Source of the DNA: Alphaproteobacteria bacterium
Lineage (GTDB): Bacteria > Pseudomonadota > Alphaproteobacteria > RF32 > CAG-239
Reading direction: 5' to 3'
DNA: 64,000 bases
NCBI GenBank assembly: GCA_017626035.1
Contig: JAGAJR010000018.1
Span: forward strand, 36,329-100,328
Shown: positions 34,637 through 54,332 of the stretch, piece by piece
How positions within the stretch are numbered: position 1 is the stretch's first letter
Layout of the letters: each line of letters begins with the position of its first letter
Translations under genes and position numbers: made by a program
Notes under the pieces: model-generated
What the model was told of the DNA's origin: nothing
What the model saw: only the letters and a program-made list of their open reading frames with translations
The model's database searches: none

Positions 34637-34915
34637 TTATTCTTTAGGCTTAGAAAGAAATCCCGCGTAAACACGAAGTTGATAATAATTCGCCAGTTTT
34701 TGAATAAGTTTCCAGTTGACGGCTTCCCGCCCGATTTCCACATTGTCCAACTCTCTCTGCTTAATATGTAAATCCATACAGACAACGGAAGAGTTTATTT
34801 TCCGTTTTTGACGGATACGAAATAAGTGCATCCCTAAAGACCGTTGAATGGCTTTACGGATAGATTTGTTTTCCGATTGGTAAAAGAAATTGTTTTTAAT
34901 TTTATGTTCAGTCAT
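34637..34915 (-). CDS. XRE-family helix-turn-helix protein (copy 1, 92 aa)
   Basis: HTH_3-like region IRKAIQRSLGMHLFRIRQKRKINSSVVCMDLHIKQRELDNVEIGRE. An AAGGAG RBS lies 9 nt upstream. The protein is about 90 percent identical to the copy at 53682-53963. Confidence 0.55.
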   Translation of the reverse strand: MTEHKIKNNFFYQSENKSIRKAIQRSLGMHLFRIRQKRKINSSVVCMDLHIKQRELDNVEIGREAVNWKLIQKLANYYQLRVYAGFLSKPKE

Positions 34916-34940
34916 CTTTTCAAACTCCTTATTTTGTTTA

Positions 34941-35136
34941 ACTTAAACAAAACCCTGCCTTGTGAAGGCAGGGGGAGTTCAGAACTGTAGTAGAACAGTC
35001 TGGGTTATTCGAGCATAGCCTTATGTCCCCAGCTCCCCGTAAAGGAGTTGTTCTTTTTTCTACTAGGAGCTCTGACACTCCGCAGTCCACCTCTGAACTG
35101 CAAAAAAGATGATAAAGCAAATAGATTAATTTGCAA
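34941..35136 (-). promoter_or_regulatory. Conserved promoter + ~160-nt leader RNA ending in an intrinsic terminator (attenuator) immediately upstream of the XRE gene, copy 1
   Basis: Minus-strand promoter elements are TTGCAA (35131-35136) and TATCAT (35109-35114). The terminator hairpin CCCTGCCTTCACAAGGCAGGG (34953-34973) is followed by UUUUGUUUAAGUU. No separate promoter lies between the terminator and the RBS. Confidence 0.4.
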
Positions 35137-35319
35137 TTAAAATTCTAAGCCACAATCTTATAAGCGGCACATAGATACTAACAGGATGTCAAGGTGCTCA
35201 CTCTCCACAGCTAACTTTCGCCCGTGGTCGCCGACCACCCAACGGGGAGTTAAAGCACATACTCAACACCGCCAACTAATGCCCGTGCCGGCTCGGCACC
35301 GCCGACCACCCGCCGGCAC

Positions 35320-35754
35320 CTAGACGAACTCGTCAACTTCTTCAATGATTTCGTTTTTCTCGTAAAAATGCTTAAGATAAGAGTGCCCGGTGCGGTCGTC
35401 ATCATCTTCTTTGATGATGGATTGATTATTGCCGTAAACGTCAACCTGGCTAGGGGTGCGGCGTTTTTCGGGAGCGGCCGGAGTTTCATATACGCCGCTG
35501 GCCGTCAGGGCTTCAATGGCACTGGGAATATAGGTTGCTCCCGACAGAAGTTTGCCTTCATCGGGTTTATCCCGTTTGTCAAAGGCTTGCGGGTTATTTT
35601 CATTGCTGCCGCGATTCTCATCACGGACAAAAACATTGTTTGTGGTGTCAATATTTTCAACAAAAGGGTGCTCTTCCACCCCGGCAACATAACGTTCGGA
35701 TCTCTTTGCCGGAGCTGAAGTATTTGATACTTTTCTGGTAGCTGAAATACTCAT
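35320..35754 (-). CDS. Hypothetical protein (144 aa), acidic C-terminus
   Basis: An ORF abutting the right end of repeat copy 1. No recognisable domain. Confidence 0.35.
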   Translation of the reverse strand: MSISATRKVSNTSAPAKRSERYVAGVEEHPFVENIDTTNNVFVRDENRGSNENNPQAFDKRDKPDEGKLLSGATYIPSAIEALTASGVYETPAAPEKRRTPSQVDVYGNNQSIIKEDDDDRTGHSYLKHFYEKNEIIEEVDEFV

Positions 35755-51601: not shown

Positions 51602-53248
<1,647 letters not shown>

Positions 53249-53650: not shown

Positions 53651-53681
53651 AGTAAAGCCCCTCAGTTGAGGGGCTTAAATT

Positions 53682-53963
53682 TTACTTTTTAGGCTTAGAA
53701 AGAAATCCCGCGTAAACATGGAGTTGATAATAATTGGCCAGCTTTTGTATAAGTTTCCAGTTGACGGCTTCCCGTCCGATTTCCACATTGTCTAAATCTC
53801 TCTGCTTAATATGCAAATCCATACAAACAATGGAAGAGTTGATTTTCCGCTTTTGGCGGATACGAAATAAGTGCATACCCAAAGAACGTTGAATGGCTTT
53901 ACGGATAGATTTGTTTTCCGATTGATAGAAAAAATTAGTTTTAATTTTATGTTCAGTCATCAT
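53682..53963 (-). CDS. XRE-family helix-turn-helix protein (copy 2, 93 aa)
   Basis: It is about 90 percent identical to copy 1 and has the same AAGGAG RBS. One extra Met codon is present at the start. Confidence 0.55.
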   Translation of the reverse strand: MMTEHKIKTNFFYQSENKSIRKAIQRSLGMHLFRIRQKRKINSSIVCMDLHIKQRDLDNVEIGREAVNWKLIQKLANYYQLHVYAGFLSKPKK

Positions 53964-53986
53964 CTTTTCAAACTCCTTATTTGTTT

Positions 53987-54193
53987 TAGTTAAACAAAAC
54001 TCACCTTATTGAAAAATAAGGTGAGGGAGTTCGAAACTGCTTACGACAGTCTGCATTCTTCGACATATAAATATGCTTATACCTGCAGCTCCCCCATAAA
54101 GAGGAGTTGATATTCGTAAGAGGAGTTTCGACGCTCCGCAGTCCACCTCTGAACTGCAAGAAGGATGATAAAGCAAATAGATTAATTATTCAA
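53987..54193 (-). promoter_or_regulatory. Conserved promoter + leader RNA with covarying terminator hairpin, copy 2
   Basis: Minus-strand elements are TTGAAT (54188-54193), a 17-nt spacer and TATCAT (54165-54170). The terminator CTCACCTTAT-loop-ATAAGGTGAG (53999-54025) is followed by UUUUGUUUAACU. Confidence 0.4.
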
Positions 54194-54332
54194 GCCACAA
54201 ACTTTCGGTCTGCACATAGATACTAACAGGGAGTTAAGGCACTTACTCAACACCGACAACCGAGGCGATCAAACTGGCTCAGTTTGGCCCGTGGTCGCCG
54301 ACCACAAAGCCCCTCAATTGAGGGGCTTTTAA

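Follow-up and report, generated by a model that had tools for sequence, protein, structure and literature searches.

Riboswitches and attenuators that work through an intrinsic terminator platform are a familiar type of bacterial leader RNA, examples being the S-box (SAM-I) and purine leaders of Bacillus. In Listeria, the leader transcripts SreA and SreB, once terminated at a site of their own, go on to behave as trans-acting small RNAs. The Alphaproteobacteria have the multicopy, tandem ‘cuckoo’ or CcsR sRNAs (RSs0680a-d), which lie beside small DUF1127 ORFs and are much shorter than the RNA considered here, with two hairpins that carry CCUCCUCCC loops. In ToxIN, a type III toxin–antitoxin system, an internal terminator sets the ratio of RNA to protein. 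Below, we describe a leader that is present twice in a 64-kb stretch of DNA, the whole of which is referred to as the window. Taken alone, an intrinsic terminator is ordinary; tracing the one that had been predicted in this leader revealed a large covarying RNA family for which Rfam 15 has no entry, which numbers at least 130 unique members, nearly all of them of human-gut metagenome origin, and which is tied to a family of small XRE regulators in uncultured bacteria. The leader is a candidate riboswitch or sRNA.

Two hairpins at equivalent sites

The window contains two modules, copy 1 and copy 2, that can be aligned over ~640 nt, and each carries a hairpin at the equivalent minus-strand site, as the original prediction held; that of copy 2 lies inside the interval claimed for it, 53987–54030. 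The copy 2 hairpin (54000–54025, minus strand) is CUCACCUUAU-UUUUCA-AUAAGGUGAG in RNA letters. In DNA letters of the minus strand, its 5′ arm is CTCACCTTAT (54025–54016), its loop TTTTCA and its 3′ arm ATAAGGTGAG (54009–54000), and it is followed by the U-tract UUUUGUUUAA (DNA TTTTGTTTAA; 53990–53999, minus strand). The copy 1 hairpin (34953–34973, minus strand) is CCCUGCCUU-CAC-AAGGCAGGG; its DNA letters are CCCTGCCTT for the 5′ arm (34973–34965), CAC for the loop and AAGGCAGGG for the 3′ arm (34961–34953), and the U-tract is again UUUUGUUUAA (DNA TTTTGTTTAA; 34943–34952, minus strand). A stem-loop had been predicted here too, correctly, although the string written for it has an extra A in the loop or arm: that 22-mer is absent from the window, and the true loop is CAC. 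On the minus strand, copy 2 thus reads ...CAGUUUCGAACUCC, then the hairpin, then UUUUGUUUAACUAAAACAAAUAAGGAGUUUGAAAAGAUG, and copy 1 reads ...CAGUUCUGAACUCC CC, then the hairpin, then UUUUGUUUAAGUUAAACAAAAUAAGGAGUUUGAAAAGAUG. The terminator scan called both hairpins and both U-tracts; both hairpins were also recovered by family folding and that of copy 2 as a covarying helix. With stems of 9–11 bp and loops of 3–6 nt, the two structures have the G+C-rich stem of at least 5 bp expected of an intrinsic terminator, and segments identical to them at two other loci fold with energies of -13.2 kcal/mol (copy 2 hairpin, L017) and -14.9 kcal/mol (copy 1 hairpin, L002).

Near-identical flanks had also been claimed. 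They are present, but the true upstream flank, on the plus strand, is GGAGTTCAGAACTG in copy 1 and GGAGTTCGAAACTG in copy 2, and these differ at two positions, both of which fall within a compensated helix of the larger RNA (P2b, see below). The common downstream flank stands as described: AAGGAGTTTGAAAAGATG occurs exactly twice in the window, once 3′ of each hairpin. Between the flanks, the stem letters diverge while the pairing is kept, again as predicted; with the stems anchored at their base, five of the nine pairs have both members changed from one copy to the other, and no pair is lost. A Shine–Dalgarno (SD) sequence (GGAG) follows ~25 nt 3′ of each hairpin and precedes an ORF of 92 (copy 1) or 93 (copy 2) codons' worth of amino acids, and a promoter-like site is found ~170 nt 5′ of each hairpin on the same strand.

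The promoter-like sites come from a consensus scan. That of copy 2 (54165–54193, minus strand) consists of TTGAAT (54193–54188), a 17-nt spacer and TATCAT (54170–54165), and ends 7 nt 5′ of the first leader helix, P1; that of copy 1 (35109–35136, minus strand) has TTGCAA, a 16-nt spacer and TATCAT. The TATCAT -10 hexamer and its position are common to copy 1, copy 2 and related loci. A loose -10 regular expression matched 107 of 107 sequences across lineages and 71 of 107 shuffles, and this pattern is too permissive to inform.

Two further elements were observed in this region. The perfect palindrome TTAATTGCAAATTAA, at 35140–35126 (minus strand), overlaps the -35 hexamer of copy 1 and also that of most copies in other metagenome-assembled genomes (MAGs), and copy 2 carries TTGAATAATTAA in its place. 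It is plausible that the palindrome is a candidate operator for XRE proteins, in auto- or cross-regulation. Secondly, many leader copies, though not all, have another conserved element of ~100 nt directly 5′ of the promoter-like site. In the window this element is at 54187–54290 and 35140–35330 (both minus strand), the latter apparently a tandem duplication 5′ of copy 1, and it recurs at L002, L003, L005, L006, L015–L017, L019, L029, L035, L037 and L040. It opens with a G+C-rich hairpin (GTGGTCG/CGACCAC, GTGCCG/CGGCAC or GTACCCG/CGGGTAC) whose sequence varies and whose palindrome stays. The element could be another small RNA, a REP- or MITE-like repeat or an upstream control region.

A family of leaders

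A pattern for the 5′ half of the leader, searched in MAGs of gut Alphaproteobacteria, gave 24 loci in six MAGs, and one for the 3′ half gave at least 120 loci in metagenomes; together, the MAGs of gut Alphaproteobacteria and the human-gut metagenomes gave at least 166 matches, which represent at least 130 unique copies. One MAG (GCA_048463395) has 12 copies and another has seven. Candidatus Scatocola faecipullorum, of the Rhodospirillales, is among the leader-bearing MAGs, and human-gut assemblies are the source of most labelled contigs among the metagenome matches listed. The module was also seen on very short contigs (L007, L008, L121 and L125) of the assemblies WFLX01 and VIDP01, which are highly fragmented, their contig numbering exceeding 1.4 million and 0.76 million, respectively. 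In some loci, three to five complete promoter–RNA–terminator units follow each other in tandem with a period of ~255 nt, and an XRE ORF is found only after the last unit (L159 6558–7782; L146 4–711; L093 430–1140). The units without an ORF keep the U-tract.

Among the 130 unique copies, 127 include enough downstream sequence for the hairpin to be studied, and these contain 66 distinct hairpin sequences. Their mean folding energy is -14.3 kcal/mol, compared with -3.5 kcal/mol for shuffles; 99% of the hairpins, and 5% of the shuffles, reach -8 kcal/mol or lower, the lone exception being a parsing error. Thus, the collection of more copies, which might have revealed hypervariability without pairing, instead yielded 66 distinct hairpins that pair. 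Every hairpin in the family has a U-tract (UUUUGUUUU, GUUUCUUUU or GUUUGUUUU) directly 3′ of it. Whatever the lineage, seven or eight of the first nine nucleotides of this tract are U, and the gene-end terminators of the window have poorer U-tracts. Covariation was assessed on a 69-sequence MAFFT alignment that was not fitted to any structure. In the terminator helix, eight of the nine pairs have both members changed and the paired cells amount to 97.1%, which bears out the proposal that selection acts on structure and not on sequence. Stem length and loop size vary freely among copies.

Some further features of the arms were observed. CCUU is present in the 5′ arm of 61 of the 69 terminators and AAGG in the 3′ arm of only 43 of the 69, which tolerates G.U pairs, so that the 5′ arm is under an extra constraint, and the arms of copy 2, CUCACCUUAU and AUAAGGUGAG, resemble an anti-SD/SD duplex. 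A pseudoknot between the invariant AUAAG(G) loop of helix P4 and the CCUU of the 5′ arm was considered; complementarity is 4.6 nt as against 3.7 nt, a small excess, and the pairing was not adopted.

Within genomes as well as between them, the P2b, P2c, P4 and terminator-stem alleles and the ORF subfamilies are combined almost without restriction. For example, the copy 2 stem CUCACCUUAU accompanies both P4 types, three different P2b alleles and four of P2c, and the ORFs that follow it belong to four subfamilies. At L001, an atpC-adjacent locus in a close relative, the protein is 99% identical to that of copy 2, yet the leader is of a different kind (‘type-2’). A ‘specificity code’ in which a helix allele would designate an ORF subfamily is ruled out, the modules being shuffled. 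Because alleles recombine freely among the paralogs, copy 1 and copy 2 differ through allele shuffling: judged by the family, the two stems of the window are alleles drawn from a recombining pool of paralogs and not local mutations, and the compensatory changes arose in the history of the family, not in place after a local duplication. Such cassette-like shuffling of compensated helices is a natural mutational test of the structure.

The ‘type-2’ leaders (L005 2690–2960, which is the same as L027; L024, L035, L001 and L004) are of separate interest. They lack the 3′ half of P4, keep the terminator, SD and ORF, and have one or two insertions of 110–130 nt with terminator-like hairpins of their own, located within the domain and also in the interval from P2 to the terminator. 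As these copies keep the terminator and the ORF, the sensor domain is not indispensable for every copy.

The hairpin as part of a larger RNA

The folding and alignment data indicate that the hairpin is the 3′ module of a folded RNA of ~150 nt, which comprises the helices P1, P2a–c, P3 and P4 (all minus strand). In copy 2, the structured domain (54026–54157), defined by minimum free energy (MFE) folding, RNAalifold, pair counts and a covariance model (CM), contains P1 (54157–54138), P2a (GGAGC, 54137–54133, with ACUCC, 54030–54026), P2b (54131–54124 with 54038–54031), P2c (54120–54114 with 54046–54040), P3 (54106–54089) and P4 (54088–54051), the last with a conserved AUAAG/CGAAnAA internal loop. 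In copy 1, the domain (34974–35101, from MFE folding and the CM) contains P1 (35101–35082), P2a (35081–35077 with ACUCC, 34978–34974), P2b (35075–35068 with 34986–34979), P2c (35065–35058 with 34995–34988), P3 (35047–35033) and P4 (35032–35000). The folding check suggested with the original prediction was borne out, as both leaders fold far better than shuffles (z = -6.1 for copy 2 and -6.7 for copy 1) and RNAalifold recovers the terminator stem from the 69-sequence alignment.

Across the family, P1 is GCAGUUCA/UGGACUGC with the loop GAGR, replaced in other copies by GCAUCCGG/CCGGAUGC and others, and P2a (GGAGU/ACUCC) is nearly invariant. P2b has eight pairs (columns 45–52 with 159–166), three of which are hypervariable yet compensated, and a G.U pair at columns 50/161 is kept in 38 of the 69 sequences. 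P2c has seven to nine pairs with 49 different 3′ strands; cognate strands are complementary over 7.4 nt and mismatched partners over 4.2 nt. Changes in P3 (CUCC../..GGAG) are mostly one-sided, giving wobbles, and P4 (CUGGG/CCCAG or CUGCA/UGCAG) encloses the AUAAG/CGAAnAA internal loop, which is invariant. For the whole structure of 40 pairs, 97.1% of cells are paired, compared with 80.0% when partners are shuffled and 37–52% in slid registers. Double changes are found in 23 of the 40 pairs (69 sequences), and the covariation score was reached by none of 500 shuffles.

A CM built from the 69 sequences finds only the two copies when the window is searched (175.7 bits for copy 1 and 172.2 bits for copy 2). 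Rfam 15 at gathering score gives only a tRNA in the window; nothing credible was obtained for the two leaders at E values up to 10, nor any match for five divergent loci at E values up to 0.1. Coding potential was sought in the leader and in small upstream ORFs past the hairpin, where reading frames are not conserved; a TTG-initiated upstream ORF after the hairpin has 12 codons in copy 1 and three in copy 2. No description of the leader motif was found in the literature. One hundred unnamed candidate RNAs near HTH-XRE genes have been reported (Fremin & Bhatt 2021; PMC8040213), and the leader may be among them; its sequence has no match in the first 200 of the 408 supplementary files of that paper.

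Downstream genes and their context

A 47–120-aa ORF is located 3′ of nearly every copy, after a longer spacer in one lineage, and this leader-linked gene nearly always encodes a small XRE HTH protein; in the most divergent RNA type (L044), the XRE gene is ~360 nt downstream. In the window, the copy 2 ORF (53682–53963, minus strand; 93 aa) was assigned as a small XRE/Cro-type HTH protein by profile comparison, and that of copy 1 (34637–34915, minus strand; 92 aa; 34637–34928 with the SD) is also XRE-type. The window ORF subfamily has no Pfam match by itself. However, hhalign relates a window ORF to the other leader-linked ORFs with 96.7% probability (E 3.7e-10), and the profile of these sibling ORFs matches the solved XRE regulators DdrOC, C.BclI, SinR, 434 repressor and HipB with E values down to 1e-9. 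Sibling ORFs match Pfam HTH_31, HTH_3 and HTH_25, two of them above the curated cut-off. The copy 2 ORF matches the generic HTH_VI model of PADLOC (E 1.8e-5), and defence-system and NCBIfam models gave generic HTH matches only. Relatives of the ORF form only seven clusters at 90% identity, all from MAGs or metagenomes, and adjoin differing genes (atpC, flagellin, cheR and a phosphoglucomutase-family gene).

Both window ORFs have their own gene-end terminator. That of copy 2, a terminator-like hairpin called by the scan (AAGCCCCTCAACTGAGGGGCTT, 53655–53676, minus strand), is a palindrome that is also called on the plus strand, just past the convergent atpC. The window neighbours are housekeeping genes, among them the convergent atpHAGDC operon, priA, a gene for RNase J and genes for an acyltransferase/AMP-ligase fusion and a GH3 hydrolase. 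It was noted in passing that the ATP synthase β subunit encoded at 51620–53248 (plus strand) has 542 aa and, as its first Pfam domain starts only at residue 75, would carry ~70 extra residues at the N terminus; ATP synthase β subunits are usually shorter than this.

P6, the Shine–Dalgarno sequence and regulation

Between the hairpin and the ORF, the U-tract can pair with an A-rich strand just before the SD. This helix, P6, is present in 68 of 74 distinct sequences. In copy 2, its 5′ strand (53998–53992, within the U-tract) pairs with AAACAAA (53986–53980) and, in copy 1, UUUUGUUUA (34952–34944) pairs with UAAACAAAA (34940–34932), so that U-tract and P6 together form an element at 34932–34952 (all minus strand). 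The G/C positions of P6 covary (UUUUGUUU/AAACAAAA in some copies and GGUUUC/GAAACC in others), and one lineage has a hairpin of ~45 nt inserted in the P6 loop. The SD that follows, GGAGUU (53971–53976 in copy 2 and 34928–34923 in copy 1, minus strand), is complementary to the invariant AACUCC (54031–54026 in copy 2), which holds the 3′ strand of P2a and adjoins the 5′ arm of the terminator with no linker. GGAGUU is found in 51 of the 52 distinct SD sequences of the family, giving at least six contiguous pairs to AACUCC; in the window background, 12% of GGAG sequences are followed by TT.

Equilibrium folding predicts that the SD pairs with AACUCC in most copies, with a mean probability of the SD being unpaired of 0.24. 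The two window copies are predicted to differ when folded at full length: copy 1 would have P2 closed and the SD free (probability unpaired 0.50), and copy 2 would have the AACUCC:GGAGUU helix around the terminator and P6 (0.06). Sequestration of the SD by AACUCC is therefore plausible; what speaks for it is conservation together with the energy models, both strands being invariant and so free of covariation.

Base-pair probabilities for transcripts ending before the 3′ arm were searched for an antiterminator, and none that is conserved was found. In such transcripts, P2a is predicted to be formed (0.78–0.84 per pair) and the 5′ arm to be 8–30% paired, with an inconsistent partner. As no antiterminator was found, termination would be the default state and, as the 5′ arm has no conserved partner, regulated attenuation in the riboswitch sense is unsupported.

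Proposed mechanism and alternatives

We consider it probable, from the arrangement of the elements, that the hairpin works as an intrinsic terminator, at which a short RNA ends and by which read-through is attenuated, and that this is coupled to sequestration of the SD. Transcription from a σ70-like promoter would start a few nucleotides before P1, and the nascent RNA would fold into a domain of ~130 nt in which P3 and P4 meet the closing helix, P2a-b-c, at a three-way junction. By default, the terminator would form to give a stable RNA of ~170 nt, and only a fraction of polymerases would continue into the gene for the small XRE-family HTH protein, 25 nt further on; this would amount to attenuation. 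On the read-through transcript, the U-tract would pair with the A-rich strand in P6 and bring the SD GGAGUU next to AACUCC. When P2a (GGAGU:ACUCC) is open, the SD would be sequesterable, providing a second, translational layer of control, and the state of P2, set by ligand, protein or RNA, would decide expression.

The earlier reading of the hairpin as a terminator or attenuator is supported by its canonical anatomy and its position: it would be an attenuator by virtue of lying between the promoter-like site and the SD, and a covarying domain that looks like a sensor precedes it on the same presumed transcript. There are only ~25 nt from the U-tract to the SD, which leaves no room for a second promoter, and the ORF should therefore depend on read-through. 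We infer that termination occurs and is partial and that the short RNA accumulates. Tandem arrays fit units that each terminate. The five-unit arrays, with five terminators, also tell against the proposed scheme in one respect, as a purely cis role of the upstream units is hard to picture. The terminator and the conserved anti-SD/SD pair make predictions that are directly testable.

More tentatively, and with somewhat less confidence than would amount to belief, we propose that the leader represents a new class of regulatory RNA specific to uncultured gut Alphaproteobacteria, in which a sensor (an orphan riboswitch or a protein-binding leader) gates XRE paralogs by termination and SD sequestration, the RNA also serving as a multicopy sRNA and its helices being exchanged as cassettes. 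If this is true, the tandem arrays would make sense as a source of abundant, multicopy sRNA.

A possible alternative, though one that we doubt, is that each unit is a free-standing gene for a multicopy trans-acting sRNA, in which the hairpin is a constitutive terminator or 3′-end protector and the XRE gene a leaky passenger or a partner. Each unit does have its own promoter-like site and a strong terminator; units occur three to five in tandem with no ORF between them, there are 12 copies in one MAG, the antiterminator search was negative, and the helices are shuffled among copies whatever ORF subfamily follows. However, an XRE ORF is found at a fixed short distance after the last unit of each array and after nearly every solitary unit, its SD GGAGUU is complementary to the invariant AACUCC of the RNA, and P6 links the terminator to the SD region. 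A gene for nothing but an sRNA would have no use for cis features such as the ORF spacing, the SD complementarity and P6. The alternative overlaps with the attenuator scheme, and both may hold together.

It could also be argued that the hairpin causes no termination of any consequence and that it and P6 are kept merely as spacers that hold the SD next to the anti-SD, that is, AACUCC beside the SD in a long 5′ UTR, for translational control or mRNA stability. We regard this as unlikely. The two helices fill the AACUCC–GGAGUU interval exactly, with no linkers, a predicted alternative fold would place both of them inside the AACUCC:GGAGUU helix, and it is pairing and not sequence that is conserved. 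Against this, a spacer would leave the composition of P6 free, yet in all lineages seven or eight of the first nine nucleotides of its 5′ strand are U, and a G+C-rich stem immediately precedes them, which is the mark of a terminator; the U-tract surpasses those of the gene-end terminators of the window, and it is retained by array units that have no ORF.

Much less probable still is a function at the level of DNA, as an inverted repeat that serves as an XRE operator, a recombination site or a REP-like palindrome. The downstream protein is indeed a DNA-binding HTH protein, operators are typically palindromes, and copy 1 has a separate palindrome, TTAATTGCAAATTAA, across its -35 hexamer. The stems, however, are wholly different between copies that encode almost the same protein, which rules them out as a cognate operator; neither the length of the stem nor the size of the loop is constrained, and the T-run is always on one side only. 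In addition, the non-Watson–Crick pairs of the terminator stem are mostly wobbles of one orientation, U(5′).G(3′), which are A.C mismatches on the other strand, and therefore the helix exists only in the RNA of the minus strand of the window; the G.U pair that P2b keeps points to the same strand. Finally, that the stretch is hypervariable and self-complementary by chance, with no selection on pairing, could not be excluded from the two window copies alone, but this has a negligible likelihood now that family folding (66 distinct variants pair, as against 5% of shuffles) and the slid-register controls (37–52% paired) have refuted it.

Comparison with known systems

The attenuator scheme favoured here has a close counterpart in the S-box/SAM-I and purine leaders of Bacillus, with which the leader shares the order of promoter, covarying multi-helix domain, G+C-rich hairpin with U-tract, SD and ORF, and in which, as is predicted here, the strand just 5′ of the terminator joins an alternative pairing. 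It differs from them in that an antiterminator helix was not found in the present leaders, in that its targets are paralogous small XRE regulators and not metabolic genes, and in the 12 copies in one MAG, the arrays with a promoter-like site for each unit and the lack of an Rfam match. The likeness to SreA and SreB is that a short, structured, terminated RNA is predicted to be made by default from the promoter of the downstream gene; to our knowledge, SreA/B do not occur as whole units arrayed in tandem.

With the cuckoo/CcsR RNAs, the leader has in common an alphaproteobacterial host, near-identical tandem units that each have a terminator, a linked small ORF and pyrimidine-rich CUCC motifs able to pair with an SD. 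In contrast to those RNAs, it has a four-helix domain of ~130 nt with CUCC inside helices, the unit precedes an XRE gene and Rfam gives no match; the CCUCCUCCC motif is absent from the 69-sequence alignment. ToxIN offers a similar layout of one promoter, a structured RNA, an internal terminator and a protein gene. Here, however, the RNA is not an array of ~36-nt repeats (no internal short repeats were found in the leader) and the protein is an XRE HTH protein, not an endoribonuclease of the ToxN/AbiQ type. In kind, then, this is a structured leader with a terminator platform, which is a known class, possibly doubling as a multicopy sRNA.
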